DNA of 39,024 nt, from sequence record KX689784; one strand, written 5' to 3'. Made by a program: the position numbers and the translations under genes. Of this stretch, positions 598 to 19,385 are shown piece by piece (within the stretch, counting starts at the first letter, position 1; every line of letters starts with the position of its first letter). The notes beneath the pieces were generated by a model. The model was not told the DNA's origin, searched no databases, and was given only the letters and a program-made list of their open reading frames with translations. Origin of the DNA: Escherichia phage JSS1.

Positions 598-746
598 ATG
601 CTACATACCTCCTGTATCTATGGTCGGTGACTATCTGTATTGGAGGGATTATGATTAATATCACCCTCCTGACTATATGGAGACCTATAGTCCTTACCTA
701 TATGCTAACTTTTAGTCGGCATACTATAAGGTCCCCCCGGTCCCCC

Positions 747-769
747 CATCCCTATAGTGATAGTTAAGT
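747..769 (-). promoter_or_regulatory. Phage RNAP promoter (phiOR-like), consensus class
   Basis: Minus-strand CTTAACTATCACTATAGGGATGG; full match to the repeated promoter motif; +1 G at 752. Confidence 0.8.
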
Positions 770-782
770 TAACCTATTGAAT

Positions 783-1325
783 TTACTTGTGGTTTCTATG
801 GGTCCTATCACGCTTAGGGGACCGTCGGTTTACTGCGTATTCCTTGTGCTTCTCAGTGCGTAAAGCATCAAGCCACACCTCTAGTTCCTCTATGGAATCT
901 GAGGTCTTCGTGAAGCACTTACCTTTTAGGCGCAACTGAGCGCGATACTTTCCGGTAGGCTTGAAAAAGCTGATACCTTTGGGTAGACCATTAGTATCGC
1001 CACCTCCTGAGTTCCATCGGTTCTCTAATGCTGTTACTAACCTGTAGTTATCCGGCCTGTCATCAAGTCTATCACCATTGATATGGTCAACCATCATGCC
1101 AGAAGGTATTCGACCAACGACTAGGCTGTAGATGATTCTGGCACGTCTATACCGACTGCCAAGAACCTTCACGATTGCGTACCCAGACGGATGAACTGAA
1201 TGTCCCATTACCTCACCGGGCTTCTTGCGAGATCCTTTATAAGGTTTCCTACACACCAACTCACCATCTACATAAGCATAGTGATTAAAGAGGGCCACCC
1301 TGTCGATGGCCTTCTGTTTACTCAT
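783..1325 (-). CDS. HNH homing endonuclease with AP2-like DNA-binding domain (180 aa)
   Basis: ATG at 1325 preceded by GGAGGAGGAG. HNH motif MVDHINGDRLDDRPDNYRLVT followed by an AP2-like segment GISFFKPTGKYRAQLRLKGKCFTKTSDSIEELEVW. Inserted between gene 19 and the phiOR promoter; not in T7. Confidence 0.8.
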   Translation of the reverse strand: MSKQKAIDRVALFNHYAYVDGELVCRKPYKGSRKKPGEVMGHSVHPSGYAIVKVLGSRYRRARIIYSLVVGRIPSGMMVDHINGDRLDDRPDNYRLVTALENRWNSGGGDTNGLPKGISFFKPTGKYRAQLRLKGKCFTKTSDSIEELEVWLDALRTEKHKEYAVNRRSPKRDRTHRNHK

Positions 1326-3102: not shown

Positions 3103-3548
3103 TGCGTCACCTCCTTATCTTGCTGCAAGGCTCTCACAGTGTCCTGAAGGGCCTTAATCCACTTGTCTCCTTTCACTCCGATGGCGATAAGACGTTTAGC
3201 ATCTCGTTCGTCAAGTTCGGCGTAACCATCAACGATGCATCGACCGTCACTTTGCGTGGCTCCACTCGTAGGTTTGACTCGGATGCGCAGCCGCTTATTG
3301 TCAGACTGAAGGTCAGCAATAATCCTATCAGTGCTGCCTTCCAGCGAGGACATTTCGTCCTGAAACCGTTTGGACACTTTGTTGACTTCAGCTTGGACAG
3401 CAAGCCTTGTATCTTCCGATGCCTTAAGATTCGAGGTGTATTCTGCATTGACCTTAGCCTCCCACTTATTGTTAGCGGTGTGGTAGCCACCAGCAAACAT
3501 CACTGCTGCAAGTAACCACGGAGCCGCTCTCTTTAAAAATTCGAGCAT
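3099..3548 (-). CDS. 18.5: Rz-like i-spanin (T7 gp18.5 homolog, 149 aa)
   Basis: N-terminus [18 protein letters not shown] and [24 protein letters not shown] resemble T7 gp18.5. N-terminal TM segment. GGGAGGG RBS. Confidence 0.85.
3173..3448 (-). CDS. Candidate Rz1-like o-spanin lipoprotein embedded in the +1 frame of gene 18.5
   Basis: Alternate-frame ORF inside 18.5 with a hydrophobic stretch ending in lipobox-like LTISGC and a proline-containing mature part. First ATG at 3448 (GGGAGG upstream) gives an unusually long N-region, so the true start is uncertain. Confidence 0.35.
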   Translation of the reverse strand: MQNTPRILRHRKIQGLLSKLKSTKCPNGFRTKCPRWKAALIGLLLTFSLTISGCASESNLRVEPRKVTVDASLMVTPNLTNEMLNVLSPSE

Positions 3549-12613: not shown

Positions 12614-13201
12614 TTAGCTATGACCTGTAGGTGTGCCTTTAGCAGCACTAATTGGTGCAGAACCACCAGAGCTGGACTCTCCAGAGATTGACTTACCAGC
12701 GGCGTAGCCTTGCATCCCGGCGGTAGCAACATTAAGTGCATGAGCCAGTGGGCTGGTCTTGATAATTTTACCTTGACCACGGATAGCAGACTTGGTGTTC
12801 TCAATGTTGGCGATACGGTTCCCGAAGATAGCCGCATAGTCGCGGTTGTAACTTTCGGTAATCCCTGCTCGCTCCTTGACTGTATCTCCTGCGACCTGAC
12901 GTTCAATCCTGTCCATAGAGTTACCTTCCAGACCTGACTCAGCCACCGCAGCTCGGACCATACCCTGATTGCGGATACCGTTGAGTGTGGTCTCTGTCAG
13001 TTCAGCCATCTGCTGCTCCTTCAGGTCTCGCTCCTGCATCTTCAGGTTCGCGTCAGAGTAGTTCATCTGCTTAACCATTTCCTGAGCCTGTCGGTTCTGA
13101 GCGTCAATTGCTGCACCTTCGGCCTTGGCCTGCTGGGATGCGGACATAGTGGCCCCGGCTGTAGCCATGATACCCATGCCGATACTTACGGGTTCACACA
13201 T
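12614..13201 (-). CDS. 14: Internal virion (core) protein B (T7 gp14 homolog, 195 aa)
   Basis: Starts MC..., has GSSMDRI and a C-terminal KGT.TG tail as in T7 gp14. AAGGAGG RBS. Confidence 0.85.
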   Translation of the reverse strand: MCEPVSIGMGIMATAGATMSASQQAKAEGAAIDAQNRQAQEMVKQMNYSDANLKMQERDLKEQQMAELTETTLNGIRNQGMVRAAVAESGLEGNSMDRIERQVAGDTVKERAGITESYNRDYAAIFGNRIANIENTKSAIRGQGKIIKTSPLAHALNVATAGMQGYAAGKSISGESSSGGSAPISAAKGTPTGHS

Positions 13202-13656
13202 ACGTCCTCCTTAGAGATAGTGAATAGTTGAAAACGCTCACCAGTTACTGGGCTGATAGTCCAATCATCATGGAACTTAGCCCCAAGCAACTTCAAGAAT
13301 TTAATGTGAGACTTATTGCCTGACCACACGTAGTTCCAGATGGTCCCGTATTGGTCTAACATTAAGTCCCTGTACTCAGAGATACGCTTTATGAACTCTC
13401 GCTTCTCTTTAGGTCTCAGCTTATAGACAAGACCGGAAGTCAAGAACCATACGTTATCACCTTGGTTTCCACCATAGGCAAACACTTCGCCTACACCGTT
13501 CGTTAAAACCACAGATGACGGGGATAAATGCTTAAGCAGTCTTTCAGAGAGACCAACGGTTGACCCATAGTTTGCTTTGCACTCATTAACATCATCTGCT
13601 GAAAGATGCCACAGAAAGTAGTGGACATCTGGTTCCGTAGCCTTGCGAATATACAT
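13186..13656 (-). CDS. 13: gp13-position virion/assembly protein (156 aa)
   Basis: Sits between gene 12 and gene 14 directly downstream of a consensus promoter. AAGGAGA RBS. Identity by synteny only. Confidence 0.55.
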   Translation of the reverse strand: MYIRKATEPDVHYFLWHLSADDVNECKANYGSTVGLSERLLKHLSPSSVVLTNGVGEVFAYGGNQGDNVWFLTSGLVYKLRPKEKREFIKRISEYRDLMLDQYGTIWNYVWSGNKSHIKFLKLLGAKFHDDWTISPVTGERFQLFTISKEDVCVNP

Positions 13657-13685
13657 AAAGTCTCCTTATAACCTTAAGGGCCTAT

Positions 13686-13708
13686 AGTCCCTATAGTGAT
13701 AGTTAAGG
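13686..13708 (-). promoter_or_regulatory. Phage RNAP promoter (phi13-like), consensus class
   Basis: Minus-strand CTTAACTATCACTATAGGGACTATAGG. The +1 region partially repeats the promoter core (CCTATAGTCC-CTATAGTG on the plus strand). Confidence 0.8.
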
Positions 13709-13732
13709 TAAATCTATAGGCCCTTCAATAAG

Positions 13733-16090
13733 TTAGACGGAACGAGCTTTCTTAGCGTATGACGCCTCCCAGCCACACCCAACGATTGACACTGGGGTGG
13801 GATAGTCGGACTCTAAGGTTAGACTCGTGGTTAATGTGTTACCATTCATAGCGAAGCGATACTGCCCGTCACCAATGTTTGTAGTCCCGATGGTTTGCTG
13901 CCCAAGGGTGTACCCGTTGAAGGTATTCACGAACTCCCGCTCACCGTTTCTGACAATGAGTCTCAGAGCGCCAGTGTCTTTGTAGTTTACCCAAGCCCGA
14001 CGAAGCTGTAGACGACCAGTGTCTTCAGACTGAGTGCCACTATCATCTTCAATCTTAATCAGGAACCGTGAGAACTTGTAGGACATCAGATAGGACCGTC
14101 CGATGAACACTGTGCGTCCTGACCAATCGCCGTTGAGGATAACCACAGTAGAGCTACTGGTCAAGTCCCCAAGGTCCACATAAGCACCCTGACTGTCAAT
14201 CAGATAGTACCGACCGGGAGACGGAGCGTTGCCGCCATAAGCAGCACCAATGTCAACCGTAGTCTTATATGCGTCAGCATTATATGAGTCAATTGGAATT
14301 ACCATAGACACCTTGGAGTCAATGTGTAGTCTATATGGCTCTGACGGGAAGTCAGTTGCCTCCTTGATGAACTTAAGGTGCTCAATGTCTACCCCTCCTT
14401 GGTGCTGACGAACGATGAACATGGTAGAGCCAATAGAAGCAGACGCCAGAATCTTATCATCTTTAGGGAACTCCCAGTGTGACCAAGAGGCTTGAAGCTG
14501 TACGCCGTCCTTAAACAAGAACTTGTAGATGTAGATACGGTTGTATGCACCTGTAGAGTTGACGCAGATGTAGTTCTCAGTCCCTGTACCTTGAATATCA
14601 AACACCCCGTTAGGGATGTAGGACAGTACGTGACCAGTTGTATCATCGGCATCCTTCACATCAGACACATCAGCTACAGCGAAGTATCGCTTAATGCTGG
14701 TGAATGACCCACGAGGCGCTGAGAAGAAGACTGAGCGTCCTACAGCGAACGGTCTGGCATTGTCCCCTAGGGCAAACTCTGAGCCTACATCAAGCTGGAT
14801 AGACTTCGAGGTAAGTACCCCAGAGCTTGTCATCACGAACTGAACCTCATCCGACCAAAGTAGTAGCTGCTCGCTAAACGGAACGGCATACTTAAGGATT
14901 GAGATTCGAGGGTTACTTACAGCTACATCAATAGGGTCATCATCACTCAGTGTCGCCACACTCTTAGGGAAGAACGCAAAGTAGCTGGCTGAACGGCTCA
15001 TGATTACGTTCTCACCCGACAAGAACCCAAGTCTGTTCCTGTAGAAGAACACATCATTAATCGTAGCATCAACGAAGCTAGGCATAGGGTTTGTGTCATC
15101 GTTACCAGCACCACGCTTGGACCAATCCAGAGTCTTGAACTCAAAGGAGCCATCAAACTGTCTGACCAGAGCATGTGGCATTGTGGTGACATCGAACCCA
15201 GTTACAACTCCCGGCTCCACTGTCTCCTTCCACGTCTTAGTGTTGGAGTCATACATCACGTAGTATTCATCGGCGCTACTGTTTGTCTCACCTTGAATCT
15301 TAATGATATACCCATTAGGAGCGGCAAGAGGTAGTTTAGAGATTGTCTGCACAGTGTCTAGGACTGGGCTTATTAGCTGGTTAGCGTAGCCATCCTCCGT
15401 CTCCACTGAGTTAATGTCGGTCCCTTCAGGGGCAGTAATTAACAGGAAGCCAGACCCAAGGTCGAACGTGAAAGAAGGATAGGCAGTAACAAGAAGGCCT
15501 CTCAGAGTTGCACCAATGGCTTGAGCGTCAACCTTAGGCGGGTCATTCGCGGCATCGTTACCTGCTGGTAGCTTATGAGAGACCTTAACGCCACCGTTGA
15601 TTCCCACCTTAAGGGTTCGACCATACTGTCCACCACGCAGGTTAATTAAAGCTCGTGCTTTGCGGTTATAACCAGAGTGTGACTTCTCGCTTCCACCTTT
15701 GACTACAACCTTACGGTTAACGACGAACGTATAGTCTGCCACGGTAACGACGCGGATGTCATCTCGCGGGTTGGAGGACTTAACGTAATCTACCGCACCG
15801 GACACTGAGTATTGATTACCACTCAAGTCAACTACCTGAATGTTGGACCCATTGAACACGATGTAATACTGCTCATGCTCGTCACGGTTAATCAGGTGGA
15901 ACTTAGGGTTACTCCCAACGTCGATGTTAAGACGTCTCTTGAAGACTGTAGGTGGGCGCTTCTGGAGACCATCACTCTCGGATGACCAGCAGTTAACCTG
16001 TGCCTCGCCTTGGTCTGAGAACCTCAGTATATCAGGCTGTTGGCTAATACCACCTTTAAGGTTCTTGATTGATTGAGTAATTAGTGGCAT
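13733..16090 (-). CDS. 12: Tail tubular protein B (T7 gp12 homolog, 785 aa)
   Basis: Length and position; AAGGAGGG RBS. Confidence 0.88.
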   Translation of the reverse strand: MPLITQSIKNLKGGISQQPDILRFSDQGEAQVNCWSSESDGLQKRPPTVFKRRLNIDVGSNPKFHLINRDEHEQYYIVFNGSNIQVVDLSGNQYSVSGAVDYVKSSNPRDDIRVVTVADYTFVVNRKVVVKGGSEKSHSGYNRKARALINLRGGQYGRTLKVGINGGVKVSHKLPAGNDAANDPPKVDAQAIGATLRGLLVTAYPSFTFDLGSGFLLITAPEGTDINSVETEDGYANQLISPVLDTVQTISKLPLAAPNGYIIKIQGETNSSADEYYVMYDSNTKTWKETVEPGVVTGFDVTTMPHALVRQFDGSFEFKTLDWSKRGAGNDDTNPMPSFVDATINDVFFYRNRLGFLSGENVIMSRSASYFAFFPKSVATLSDDDPIDVAVSNPRISILKYAVPFSEQLLLWSDEVQFVMTSSGVLTSKSIQLDVGSEFALGDNARPFAVGRSVFFSAPRGSFTSIKRYFAVADVSDVKDADDTTGHVLSYIPNGVFDIQGTGTENYICVNSTGAYNRIYIYKFLFKDGVQLQASWSHWEFPKDDKILASASIGSTMFIVRQHQGGVDIEHLKFIKEATDFPSEPYRLHIDSKVSMVIPIDSYNADAYKTTVDIGAAYGGNAPSPGRYYLIDSQGAYVDLGDLTSSSTVVILNGDWSGRTVFIGRSYLMSYKFSRFLIKIEDDSGTQSEDTGRLQLRRAWVNYKDTGALRLIVRNGEREFVNTFNGYTLGQQTIGTTNIGDGQYRFAMNGNTLTTSLTLESDYPTPVSIVGCGWEASYAKKARSV

Positions 16091-16099
16091 AGGCCCTCC

Positions 16100-16327
16100 T
16101 TAAATCATACTCATTAGGACATATCCTTCAGCGATGTCACCAACGTCAGCAATGTGGACAACCTTACGCGCTACCTGTTGTCCAGTATACCCGTTGTCCC
16201 ACTCATTCAGGATAAGCCAGTCGCCAACCTTAAAGTCCCGGTCGTTAAGTCTCAGCTCTGCTGTCTTTAGACCTAGCTGTACCGGACCAAAGTGCTGGCG
16301 GTGAATCTTCAGGTTGTGACTAGCCAT
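16100..16327 (-). CDS. Small ASCH/PUA-like protein (resembles the DUF3850 family, 75 aa) inserted between genes 11 and 12
   Basis: ATG at 16327 with GGGAGGG RBS, TAATG overlap with the gene 11 stop. Pattern HNLKIHRQHF...LKTAELRLNDRDFKVGDWLILNEWD matches my recollection of DUF3850 proteins. Not in T7. Confidence 0.55.
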   Translation of the reverse strand: MASHNLKIHRQHFGPVQLGLKTAELRLNDRDFKVGDWLILNEWDNGYTGQQVARKVVHIADVGDIAEGYVLMSMI

Positions 16328-16893
16328 TAGTCCCTCCCGATGTCAGACATCATGTTGTAGCGACCAGTGTCCATCTCGTACTCCATAACCTGCTGATAGA
16401 GTTCTGCTTCCTGCTCACGAAGGTATAGCTCTGACTCTGGGCTACCGAAGAACTTAGCGTTGAACTCACGGCTAGCTTTAGTGACGATGTAGTCCCTGAA
16501 GACCACAGGCATCTCGGAGAATGGCTTCATCTCCACAAGCTCTACCGTGATAGGGTCGGTGAAAGTGGTTGACTGAGTGGATAGGTCGTACAGGTATCCA
16601 CCCATGTTGCTGTAGTAGCTGGTGGCCCCAGTGGTCATTACACGAAGGTATGACGGCAGGAATCTAATCCTATTGTCTTGGACATCAGGTGTCAGGACAG
16701 CGGCTTCGTTGATGTTAAAGTTCCAGCCTTTAGCTTGGACCTGACGATTGACACGATGCAGGATACGTTGAGCGTTAGAGACGTCAGCGTTCCCCTCGTC
16801 AAGCTGTAGGACTGCTGGTTCACCGATAGTAGCTAACATATCGTTGATGGCGTCTAAGTCATCGTTAGCATTCAGTGGAATGTATTGAGCCAT
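16327..16893 (-). CDS. 11: Tail tubular protein A (T7 gp11 homolog, 188 aa)
   Basis: Similar to T7 gp11 (INDMLATIGEP, RGW.FNI, RDYIVTKASREFN, MEYEMD). AAGGAGGG RBS. Confidence 0.9.
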   Translation of the reverse strand: MAQYIPLNANDDLDAINDMLATIGEPAVLQLDEGNADVSNAQRILHRVNRQVQAKGWNFNINEAAVLTPDVQDNRIRFLPSYLRVMTTGATSYYSNMGGYLYDLSTQSTTFTDPITVELVEMKPFSEMPVVFRDYIVTKASREFNAKFFGSPESELYLREQEAELYQQVMEYEMDTGRYNMMSDIGRD

Positions 16894-16906
16894 AGGCCCT
16901 CCTTAA

Positions 16907-16946
16907 GCAAAAAAACCCCTCAAGCACCCGAAGGCACCCAAGGGGT
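16907..16946 (-). terminator. Intrinsic terminator (T7 Tphi equivalent)
   Basis: Minus-strand RNA ACCCCUUGGGUGCC-UUCG-GGUGCUUGAGGGG then UUUUUUU: 13 bp stem including G-U pairs, UUCG tetraloop, U7 tract. Immediately after the 10B stop. Confidence 0.8.
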
Positions 16947-16951
16947 TTCAA

Positions 16952-18264
16952 TTAGTTTGTGAACGAAACGTTGAATGACCTAACGGTAGACCCGTCATAT
17001 CCAACAGTTACAAGACCTGTCACAGCATCGGTGGCCTTGAAGTAGAGACTTGAAGTTCTACGAGAGTAGCTCACACCATCCGGCATGGTTACATCCAGCA
17101 GAGACCAGTCGGTCACATCTGCCAGCTCAGGGAAGTCAACCTTAAGACTGACACCCACTGAGGACTCCAAGGTTTCCAAGGTAGGACCCTCAGTAGAGAG
17201 AGTCCTGAAGGTCATTAACCCTTTGCTGCTTGACTGAAAACCAGAGCACCAGCCGCTTCAGGGCGCAGACCACCGTGACCCATAGCGTATTTACCAACAA
17301 TCAGGTCGCCCTGAGCATCGACGTCACGGTCACGTTCCAGCGCCAAGTCACGCAGCTTCACAGTACCAACAGCAGAACGGTGAGAGAACAGACCCACAAC
17401 GTTGTCCATAGCAACTTTAACAGCGCCAGTAGCAGTTGCCGGGAATGCGTGTTTCTGACCGGAAGCGATAGAAATACCATCGTCACCACGAGTCTCACCA
17501 GCGCCACCCTGTACCAGATGCGGAACCTCGACAACAACGAAGCCCATCACGTTACGGATGTTACCAGTCTCTGGATCAATCAGCGCAGCATAGTTAGCAG
17601 CGTTCGGCATCAGAGCGGCGAGGATTGCAGAGTAGTTGTCAGGCGTGGTGTAGAAGTAACGGTCGCCAGCAGGAACGTAGTTGGAGGTCAGCTTCGCACG
17701 AGCAATGGTCAGTTGACCAATGATTGCCTCACCCAGCTTAGCCGGAGTGTTCAGGTCGGCTTTAGTACCAACTTCAAGTACTGACGCAGTGCCCAGACCG
17801 GCAATATTTTCGTTGGATGCAGCCGGGAGGTTACACAGGAGAGCCATTTCAGCCAGAACCGCACCATCAGCAGCGATAGCCAGAGCTTCACCCAACTGGT
17901 TGGAGTACTCGCCAGCCACGTCATAGTGGTTCATCGCGTCTTCAATGTCGAAAATCATCACATCGGCAGTCAGCAGACCATCAATGGTAATCACTTTCTC
18001 TGTATGTTTGATACCTTTACGCTTATCGGACAGTCGCTCACCCGGAGCCAGATACACACCAGAGGTGCGACCCATGACCGGGAACTGAGCAGACTTACCG
18101 TTCTGAATGGTACGGACAATATGCTTGTCAGCGGTTACAGAGCGGCGAGTGAATGCGGTCAGGACTTCACCAGCAAAGACCTTCAGGAACAACGCCAGAG
18201 CGTCGGAACTGGATTTGCCTTTACCTTGGTCTGTACCAATTTTCTGACCCGGAACGTTTGCCAT
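16952..18264 (-). CDS. 10B: Major capsid protein 10B, predicted -1 frameshift product of gene 10
   Basis: The -1 frame at the end of 10A is open across the slippery site and continues to TAA at 16952, adding about 94 aa. The arrangement parallels T7 10A/10B. Confidence 0.55.
17215..18264 (-). CDS. 10A: Major capsid protein 10A (349 aa)
   Basis: Very strong similarity to T7 gp10A (KSAQFPV.GRT, HTEKVITIDGLLTADV, MPNAANYAALIDPE, RSAVGTVKLRDLALER, GKYAMGHGGLRPEAAGA). AGGAGA RBS. Confidence 0.96.
   Translation of the reverse strand: MANVPGQKIGTDQGKGKSSSDALALFLKVFAGEVLTAFTRRSVTADKHIVRTIQNGKSAQFPVMGRTSGVYLAPGERLSDKRKGIKHTEKVITIDGLLTADVMIFDIEDAMNHYDVAGEYSNQLGEALAIAADGAVLAEMALLCNLPAASNENIAGLGTASVLEVGTKADLNTPAKLGEAIIGQLTIARAKLTSNYVPAGDRYFYTTPDNYSAILAALMPNAANYAALIDPETGNIRNVMGFVVVEVPHLVQGGAGETRGDDGISIASGQKHAFPATATGAVKVAMDNVVGLFSHRSAVGTVKLRDLALERDRDVDAQGDLIVGKYAMGHGGLRPEAAGALVFSQAAKG
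17236..17242 (-). other. Candidate -1 programmed ribosomal frameshift slippery site GGUUUUC
   Basis: mRNA CUG-GUU-UUC-AGU lies 6 codons before the 10A stop; the -1 frame stays open into the downstream ORF. Confidence 0.55.
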
Positions 18265-18366
18265 ATGATAATTCTCCTATTCAATTGAAAGATAAAGTTT
18301 ATTACTTACTGTATGCCCAATCCGTATGGACTGAAGTAATAGGGAAACCTTGAGTCTTTCTCTTGG

Positions 18367-18389
18367 TCTCCCTATAGTGATAGTTTAGT
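18367..18389 (-). promoter_or_regulatory. Phage RNAP promoter (phi10-like), consensus class
   Basis: Minus-strand GGACTAAACTATCACTATAGGGAGACCAAGA; perfect GGGAGA initiation region. Confidence 0.85.
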
Positions 18390-18390
18390 C

Positions 18391-19275
18391 CTACAGGCTT
18401 GAGGCAGCTACCTTAGCGCGAACTTCCATCGTGTACTTAGCGTCACGCAGGTATCGCGGGTCACTCATAGCCTTAATCATGTCAGCCTTTGAGCTGAATG
18501 CTTCGGTCTGAGGAGCCTTAGGTGCGACCACAGGTTTAGCCTGAGTGGTGATGGTGCGCTGAGGTTTAACACCCACAGCTTTACCAAGAGTCTTGCCAGC
18601 CAGATTCAGAAGAGCTTTGGTAGTCGCAATGTCCTTACGAACGATAGCAGCTTCCAGTGCTTCACGAGTTGACGGGTCGTTGGACTCAAGGTGTGACAGG
18701 ATGCGATTAAACTGTTCAGCACCACCAGCGTAGCGAACCACACCAGCAGCATACTGTTCAGCCAGAGCTTCCTGACCACGGACAAACGAATCTACGAAAC
18801 GCTTGGTGTAACCTGCTTCCTGCAACTTAGCGTAGGATGCGTCAGACAGCTTACCGTCCTTGGCGTATTCAGCCTTGATAGCGGTAATCTCATCAGCAGT
18901 GACCTTGCCAGCTTCTACAGCAGAAGACACCATGTCGTCGAATGCAGCTTCGTTTTCATCCAGAGCGGTGACACTTTCGGTCAGCTCTTTAGGTGCATCA
19001 CCAAGTTCGACGAACTCAGGTTGCTCACCATCGGTCTCAGACTCTTCGTCATCGGACTCGTGGTCTTCTCCACCTTCAGTCTCTTCGACGTTTTCGTCTT
19101 CTTCGGTCGCCTCTTCATTTTCAGCTTCCAGTTGCTTGAAGGTAATAGCGTCGTCGCCATCACGAACAGCTACGTCCTGTTCAAGCATAGACTTCTGGTG
19201 TTCGTTCAGGTCCTCAACGTAACCAGTGATTGCATTAGAGCTAACGCCGAACTCGGCATAAACTGATTGAGACAT
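18391..19275 (-). CDS. 9: Capsid assembly (scaffolding) protein (T7 gp9 homolog, 294 aa)
   Basis: Highly acidic with an E/D-rich central segment; position between portal and capsid; AAGGAGA RBS. Confidence 0.85.
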   Translation of the reverse strand: MSQSVYAEFGVSSNAITGYVEDLNEHQKSMLEQDVAVRDGDDAITFKQLEAENEEATEEDENVEETEGGEDHESDDEESETDGEQPEFVELGDAPKELTESVTALDENEAAFDDMVSSAVEAGKVTADEITAIKAEYAKDGKLSDASYAKLQEAGYTKRFVDSFVRGQEALAEQYAAGVVRYAGGAEQFNRILSHLESNDPSTREALEAAIVRKDIATTKALLNLAGKTLGKAVGVKPQRTITTQAKPVVAPKAPQTEAFSSKADMIKAMSDPRYLRDAKYTMEVRAKVAASSL

Positions 19276-19362: not shown

Positions 19363-19385
19363 TGTTCCTATAGTGATAGTTTAGG
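19363..19385 (-). promoter_or_regulatory. Phage RNAP promoter (phi9-like), consensus class
   Basis: Minus-strand GCCTAAACTATCACTATAGGAACAACGG, overlapping the gene 8 stop. Confidence 0.8.

Follow-up and report, generated by a model that had tools for sequence, protein, structure and literature searches.

In Escherichia phage JSS1, a small reading frame lies between the genes for the two tail tubular proteins, at a position where T7 has a 23-nt gap and no gene. This raises the question of whether the frame is a genuine gene and, if so, how it came to lie in a structural operon and what its product does. We addressed this in the 39,024-nt sequence of record KX689784, referred to here as the window. 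An initial annotation had described the frame as tightly packed between its neighbors, with a TAATG overlap at the gene 11 stop, a GGGAGGG ribosome binding site and a 9-nt gap to gene 12, and had pointed to the difference from T7; we found all of these features at 16100..16327 on the minus strand.

Bases 15600-16900 of the window are 100% identical to phage PE3-1 (NC_024379 / KJ748011; Autographiviridae, Studiervirinae, Kayfunavirus) in reverse-complement orientation, so the late genes are on the minus strand of the window, and all features given below are on that strand unless stated otherwise. The gene of interest, a DUF3850 gene with a predicted minimal ASCH fold (PE3_037 in PE3-1), runs from its ATG at 16327..16325 to its stop codon at 16102..16100 and encodes the 75-aa protein MASHNLKIHRQHFGPVQLGLKTAELRLNDRDFKVGDWLILNEWDNGYTGQQVARKVVHIADVGDIAEGYVLMSMI. 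It is flanked upstream by the homologue of gene 11, which encodes tail tubular protein A (16327..16893; Pfam Tube, E 2.6e-46), and downstream by that of gene 12, which encodes tail tubular protein B, or nozzle (13733..16090; Pfam Phage_nozzle, E 0). The TAA of gene 11 (16329..16327) overlaps the ATG of the DUF3850 gene in the TAATG at 16325..16329, and the GGGAGGG Shine-Dalgarno sequence is found at 16332..16338, inside the 3' end of gene 11; both are present in the coding-strand sequence of this junction, GGGAGGGACTAATGGCT. At the junction with gene 12, TAAGGAGGGCCTATG, the 9-nt spacer GGAGGGCCT (16091..16099) carries a second Shine-Dalgarno sequence for gene 12. These elements were read from the sequence, and their layout suggests that the DUF3850 gene is translationally coupled to gene 11. 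The spacer and the element at 16332-16338 form an imperfect direct repeat (GGAGGG..CTA(A)TG) on either side of the insert. An antisense 56-aa frame on the plus strand (16134..16304) was set aside, as it had no support.

Two features of the neighboring annotation are worth recording. The window has an 87-aa frame directly after gene 10A (16952-17215), annotated as 'hypothetical protein', and a RefSeq note to gene 10A raises the possibility that a slippery-sequence frameshift leads into it, as a gene 10B-type extension. The annotation of NC_024379 is inconsistent for a T7-like phage, with gp1 called an 'N4-like RNA polymerase' and genes 11 and 12 noted as gp14 and gp14.1.

The reading frame is a genuine gene under purifying selection. 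Its product matches Pfam DUF3850 (PF12961) with 70.1 bits against a cut-off of 22.9 (E 1.9e-19; residues 4-73 on model positions 2-76 of 77) and Pfam ASCH (PF04266, PUA-like clan) with 26.2 bits against a cut-off of 21.2, the latter a marginal and partial match over model positions 2-61 of 103, so the likeness to DUF3850/ASCH-type proteins proposed in the initial annotation is upheld. It also matches PHROG 986, which is labelled 'RNA-binding protein', and is without a match in NCBIfam. At saturating synonymous divergence from relatives (dS 1.1-1.8), dN/dS is 0.10-0.16, which is about the level seen for gp12 in these comparisons. By blastn the gene is found in 164 phage records, and a profile search of metagenomic and genomic protein space recovers 16,228 protein clusters of the DUF3850 family at E <= 0.001. 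Given the DUF3850 score, the low dN/dS at dS above 1 and the 164 phage records, this is not a chance reading frame. The gene is already known, being RefSeq PE3_037 'RNA-binding protein', gene 11.05 of phage CR44b, and a 'DUF3850 domain-containing protein' or 'hypothetical protein' elsewhere; it is an annotated accessory gene of a large uncharacterised family and not a new kind of element. An Rfam search of 13000-19000 on both strands found nothing.

Three records deserve a comment on their host names. Those of Enterococcus phage EFA-1 (MT350292) and Acinetobacter phage vB_Aba_01KA (PV615262) have ~97% DNA identity to this coliphage region, and that of Staphylococcus phage MBBL139 (OR786095) encodes an 84%-identical copy of the DUF3850 protein. 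All three probably have mislabelled hosts or are contaminating coliphages.

The product is a minimal member of its fold class. The AF2 model has a mean pLDDT of 95 and a Foldseek TM of 0.91 to PDB 3IUW, so structure prediction agrees with the profile search on a DUF3850/ASCH protein. 3IUW, the only solved DUF3850 member, is also matched by sequence (phmmer E 1.2e-10; family profile E 1.5e-19). In the model, the protein is an 8.5-kDa, near-neutral five-strand barrel with one helix, a minimal ASCH/PUA-like fold, and its last two strands are joined by a 7-residue loop only; the pI is 6.4, with 8 K+R against 9 D+E. 3IUW itself is a structural-genomics protein, the 'activating signal cointegrator' NP_814290.1 of Enterococcus faecalis V583, and comes from a bacterium, not a T7-like phage. 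We found no report of its function or ligand, so it provides the fold but no mechanism.

The translation contains the ASCH octapeptide, defined as G-x-K-x-x-[E/T/S]-x-R (bioRxiv 10.64898/2026.02.27.708502, citing Iyer et al. 2006), as G19-L-K21-T-A-E24-L-R26, which places it in the Glu or "GKER" class. Among 155 diverse representatives of the family, H4, K7, G19, K21, E24, R26, N28, D29, R30, G35, D36, E42, T48, G49, Y69 and S73 are each 90-99% conserved, and all are present here. K21 and E24, the Lys/Glu dyad, are 97-98% conserved in the DUF3850 family. Departures from columns conserved at 80% or more are limited to two: R replaces P at position 10 and M replaces L at position 72. Both F13 (81%) and Y69 (93%) are conserved, and their positions would be plausible for counterparts of Tyr14 and Tyr81, the aromatic residues that position the nucleoside in TthASCH. 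We believe that the conserved polar residues probably cluster in one pocket of the ASCH cleft.

How the gene came to lie between genes 11 and 12 is best understood by comparing Kayfunaviruses with and without it. In the type species, K1F, the junction is empty and the gene 11 stop overlaps the gene 12 start in a TAATG; the same holds for Esher7, which has 95% identity to the window in the flanking sequence. Alignment with these two K1F-type phages places a 237-nt insertion at 16088..16324. The insertion in PE3-1 re-uses the old Shine-Dalgarno sequence and ATG of gene 12 and brings a new Shine-Dalgarno sequence for gene 12, so that the GGGAGGG that serves the DUF3850 gene here serves gene 12 in K1F and Esher7. 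In SH3 the gp11 and gp12 genes are adjacent (PMC4925675), so SH3 lacks the DUF3850 gene, and ORF numbering suggests that SH4 lacks it as well. It is also absent from CR8. Overall, this type of gene 11 occurs in 212 records and the DUF3850 gene in ~164, about three quarters of that number. Divergent Kayfunavirus-like contigs with 75-77% identical DUF3850 proteins keep the gp11-DUF3850-gp12 layout and the 1-nt TAATG overlap.

A second kind of gene is found at the same place. Downstream of an identical DUF3850 gene, Hafnia phage yong1 and coliphage KM02 each have an endonuclease VII-type gene (146 aa; in yong1, Pfam Endonuclease_7, E 2.6e-20), which overlaps the start of gene 12, and the gene tables of Hafnia phage Ca and Enterobacter phage B1 list a 75-aa ORF and then a 146- or 158-aa ORF at this place (PMC8861465, PMC12785254). 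The Przondovirus Klebsiella phage HZJ31 has an annotated endonuclease VII-type gene alone at the junction (510-911 of the segment examined), and Klebsiella phage kpssk3 has an unannotated one in a 462-bp gap (682-1188, minus strand, of its segment; 146-168 aa depending on the start codon). Only 4 records match the endonuclease gene at 99% or more, and this number includes the LI10P1 remnant, which is entered twice. Like the DUF3850 gene, the free-standing homing endonucleases at this junction in Przondoviruses and some Kayfunaviruses are present in some phages and absent from others that are closely related, and are tightly coupled to their neighbors. Unlike them, the window protein has DUF3850 and ASCH domains only and no nuclease domain, and nothing about the DUF3850 gene indicates mobility by itself. 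Other free-standing endonucleases in the PE3-1 genome are the HNH endonuclease genes PE3_017 and PE3_048. In the close relative IMGVR_UViG_3300045988_000061, which also carries the DUF3850 gene, an endonuclease VII-like ORF lies between genes 10 and 11, directly upstream of the latter (3106-3426).

The junction also loses genes. Kayfunavirus LI10P1 (OZ035803) has a 50-aa chimera at 767-919 (minus strand) of the examined segment, MASHN followed by HETGEVRGLLC..., made of the first five DUF3850 codons and the last 45 endonuclease VII codons. A deletion of 527 bp between two CACAACC repeats of the tandem arrangement in yong1 and KM02 accounts for it exactly, one repeat lying in DUF3850 codons 4-5 and the other in the DHNH motif of the endonuclease (774 and 1301 in the yong1 segment); downstream of the deletion, 148/150 positions are identical. 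The gene 11/12 junction is a hot-spot of recombination, with no fewer than four allelic states, and the natural null alleles show that the DUF3850 gene is dispensable.

As regards its origin, the gene is best explained as a 237-nt cassette that was probably acquired horizontally at the Kayfunavirus gene 11/12 junction. In a tree, all Kayfunavirus DUF3850 copies except that of CR44b form one clade, and the CR44b copy keeps the MASH start and the conserved central block, so independent acquisition in different Kayfunaviruses is unsupported. A foreign base composition was ruled out, the gene having a GC of 48.7% and a GC3 of 52.6%, no different from its flanks. The gene is absent by blastn from 5,426 complete E. 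coli genomes, so there is no recent E. coli prophage donor among them.

Several further observations bear on the history of this site. The cassette is more uniform than its flanks, with at least 95% identity in 145/164 DUF3850 records against 103/212 gene 11 records, and between the window and one relative (L012) dS is 0.06 for the DUF3850 gene, 0.62 for gene 11 and 0.44 for gene 12. This suggests that the cassette may have spread horizontally of late, the comparison resting on ~50 synonymous sites only. The first codons of gene 12 (window 16040-16090) exist as two synonymous-site alleles, ATGCCACTAATTACTCAATCAATCAAG of the PE3-1 type and ATGCCGCTTATTACGCAAAGCATAAAA of the K1F/Esher7/LI10P1 type, and three DUF3850 carriers (L009, L013, L014) have only 84-87% identity in a 100-nt block at the gene 12 5' end. 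This end of gene 12 is a mosaic recombination boundary at the insertion site. In Citrobacter phage CR44b, gene 11.05 (1407-1631 of the segment) is at the same site and encodes a 45% identical protein (DUF3850, 26.6 bits) that keeps residues 33-58, while N-D-R is now S-I-P, K7 and Y69 are lost and E24 is replaced by D; it is either an eroding gene or a gene with changed function.

The initial annotation had also claimed that the gene is expressed late and at a high level. A Tphi-like intrinsic terminator with a 17-bp stem and a T run lies after gene 10 at 16912..16949 (RefSeq terminator phiTE). The nearest phage-RNAP promoter upstream of the DUF3850 gene is the one upstream of gene 10 at 18369..18388, an exact match to CTAAACTATCACTATAGGGA, and the next is a phi13-like promoter match downstream of gene 12 at 13688..13707. 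The window has 11 phage promoter matches against 0.01 expected by chance; matches to the consensus CTAAACTATCACTATAGGRA are all on the minus strand, with ends at 19384, 18388 and 13707 among others, and the scan found none between 18369 and 13707. With a terminator upstream and no intervening promoter, gene 11, the DUF3850 gene and gene 12 would be transcribed only by read-through, as genes 11 and 12 likewise are in T7. The T7 products gp11 and gp12 are low-copy tail proteins. Late expression of the DUF3850 gene is therefore a sound reading of the layout, whereas a high level does not follow from it.

Nor does a position in the structural operon imply a structural role, because the site is polymorphic, close relatives lack the gene, and homologues lie in replication and nin-type modules. 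In 69 viral contigs from outside the Kayfunaviruses, the homologue is in early or accessory modules, next to replication protein A, REP proteins, three N6_N4 and one D12 DNA methyltransferase, HNH endonucleases, NinB, NinG, PAPS reductase, radical-SAM proteins and helicases. Outside the genus, the nearest homologue (65% identity) belongs to the lambdoid Erwinia phage Midgardsormr38, where it lies in the nin region. Elsewhere DUF3850 is fused to DUF551, Dam methylase, a MazG-like dATP/dGTP pyrophosphohydrolase or HTH domains, and ParB-CTPase-DUF3850 fusions occur in prophages (PMC12704722). These fusions involve the same domain in phage accessory contexts, whereas the window protein is the bare domain; the PE3-1 annotation includes no ParA or ParB gene. 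We are highly confident that the DUF3850 gene is a non-structural DUF3850/ASCH accessory gene.

What the protein does is a more difficult question. By analogy with other ASCH proteins, its most likely activity would be to bind, and perhaps deacylate, a cytidine-type base via the G-x-K-x-x-E-x-R pocket. In such a mechanism, G19-x-K21-x-x-E24-x-R26 together with H4, N28-D29-R30, D36, E42 and Y69 would hold a nucleobase, most likely cytidine-type and N4-modified, either free or flipped out of RNA or DNA. The base might also be hydrolysed, as in the Glu-type (GKER) ASCH proteins that are reported to deacetylate N4-acetylcytidine in tRNA. The protein would act late on host or phage nucleic-acid or nucleotide chemistry and would give a conditional, non-essential benefit. 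No methyltransferase or modification gene is annotated in PE3-1 itself, which makes it likely that any target comes from the host. For a specific N4-acylcytidine hydrolase, the analogy makes the activity possible but on balance doubtful, and for the whole explanation, in which this activity is blended with the non-structural accessory role, we would put the chances at about even.

The closest experimental comparisons come from two classes of ASCH enzyme. E. coli YqfB is an N4-acetylcytidine amidohydrolase (PDB 1TE7, 9KYF-9KYH) for which K21, T24 and R26 are reported to be catalytic (PMC9599836). In an hhalign alignment, K21/E24/R26 of the DUF3850 protein fall on these residues, but the match is weak (probability 22%) and the alignment ends at residue 47. 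YqfB has 103 aa and a ~25-residue helical insert, between strands 4 and 5, that bears the catalytic Glu74, whereas the 75-aa DUF3850 protein has no equivalent segment. A YqfB-type enzyme was rejected on these two differences, Glu24 in place of Thr24 and the missing Glu74 segment. The Glu-type proteins are T. thermophilus TthASCH (2DP9), human EOLA1, the ASCH domain of TRIP4 and Z. mobilis ZmASCH, and K21/E24 match the Lys/Glu dyad of the deacetylases among them (TthASCH, EOLA1 and TRIP4). They differ from the DUF3850 protein in size and shape, having 120-160 aa, extra helices and often a basic cleft, and the DUF3850-specific H4, N-D-R, D36 and E42 are outside the ASCH octapeptide motif that these proteins carry. 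Within this class, reported activities are RNase activity for ZmASCH and DNA binding for TRIP4.

In a recent preprint, 19 ASCH proteins of the Thr and Glu classes are reported to strip ac4C from tRNA, with the Lys/Glu dyad being essential (bioRxiv 10.64898/2026.02.27.708502). No DUF3850 protein is named among the 19 tested, and the preprint's structural tree was restricted to proteins in which 80 or more residues align to YqfB, so that proteins of 75 residues are outside that survey. An earlier study, as cited in the same preprint, had found Glu-type ASCH proteins inactive on ac4C. We found no biochemical or genetic experiment on any DUF3850 protein in the literature. Counting against the pocket model is the persistence of the CR44b gene though its N-D-R motif is lost. 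Other activities are reported for this fold, such as the 5hmC DNA glycosylase activity of BapA (bioRxiv 10.64898/2026.02.25.707755), and ASCH-fold sensor domains occur in modification-dependent nucleases (PMC12191111, PMC7641849).

The main rival to a hydrolase is a non-catalytic reader, in which a small PUA-like module binds RNA or modified DNA (e.g. m6A, m4C) and regulates or shields the nucleic acid. The PUA/ASCH/EVE/YTH superfamily is known to read modified bases (PMC7641849, PMC4738411), the ParB-CTPase fusions of prophages (PMC12704722) are in keeping with such a role, and the fusions to Dam methylase and the adjoining N6_N4 and D12 methyltransferases fit a reader of modified bases equally well. 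The 'RNA-binding protein' label of PHROG 986 also points this way, but it is a transferred prediction. The near-neutral charge noted above gives the sequence no basic nucleic-acid-binding character, and gel-shift assays of YqfB-type proteins detected no binding to nucleic acids (PMC9599836). In addition, about thirteen of the 75 aa are near-invariant polar residues, acid/base pairs included, a pattern more suggestive of an active site or a pocket for a small ligand. On this evidence, we consider a pure reader rather unlikely.

Two further alternatives have little chance of being right, in our opinion. The gene could be a neutral hitch-hiker, cargo in a homing-endonuclease hot-spot that is kept by linkage and has no function for the phage. 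Endonuclease VII-type genes do occur at the gp11/gp12 junction in Przondoviruses and in tandem with DUF3850 in yong1 and KM02, the gene's presence is polymorphic (164 records against 212 with this gp11 type), and its DNA is more uniform than the flanks. Set against this are the purifying selection across dS above 1, the retention of the family signature residues except at positions 10 and 72, and the finding of the endonuclease in at most a handful of carriers (only 4 records at 99% or more). Equally improbable is an anti-defence protein that binds or destroys a nucleotide-derived signal or blocks a base-modification-dependent sensor. Such a role would suit a small, patchy, phage-enriched gene found in the accessory regions of many unrelated phages, and it has been raised as a possibility for phage ParB-fold fusions, DUF3850 fusions included (PMC12704722). 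However, PADLOC gives no significant match for the protein (best E 0.007, 14 bits), we found no report of it in anti-defence papers, a term search of the Silas et al. accessory-gene preprint giving no match, and late read-through expression would be unusual, since counter-defence genes act early as a rule.

A tail-assembly factor or minor virion protein working with gp11 and gp12 is scarcely credible and was rejected because natural null alleles exist and because of where homologues lie in other genomes: the gene does sit between two tail tubular genes with a TAATG overlap, but it is not found in all phages with the same tail, being absent from K1F, Esher7 and SH3, whose gp11 and gp12 are near-identical (PMC4925675), as well as from CR8 and T7, and deleted in LI10P1, and its homologues elsewhere are never in tail modules. 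The CR44b record flags gp7.3 (82 aa), 8, 9, 10A, 11, 12, 14, 15, 16, 17 and 17.01 from virion mass spectrometry, and gene 11.05, one divergent orthologue, has no such flag in the GenBank record. As evidence this absence is weak, since small proteins easily escape detection and the CR44b copy has diverged. The phage B1 virion study covered excised gel bands only, and the virion data for SH1, SH3 and SH4 are uninformative, SH3 being without the gene.

To return to the preferred reading of a non-structural accessory protein with a base-binding and perhaps hydrolytic pocket, its boldest form would make this the smallest active ASCH enzyme, a late phage hydrolase of N4-acetyl or N4-acyl cytidine (in host tRNA-Met or as free nucleosides) or otherwise a destroyer of a modified-base signal. 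This would be the first function for DUF3850, carried on a cassette that swept the Kayfunaviruses because it pays on particular hosts. We regard this form as distinctly unlikely.

DUF3850 is a large family that is over-represented in phages and prophages and in which one structure has been solved, and the Kayfunavirus gene is a tractable system for assigning its function. Nature has provided isogenic-like pairs that differ in the presence of the gene (PE3-1, which has it, and Esher7 or K1F, which do not), a natural deletion in LI10P1 and a copy with an eroded motif in CR44b, and the claims of ac4C erasure by ASCH proteins supply a concrete assay. The gene 11/12 hot-spot matters in its own right for the engineering of K1F-type phages. 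If the proposed activity is true, a virulent phage would, at a late stage of infection, edit the tRNA of its host or salvage modified nucleosides.
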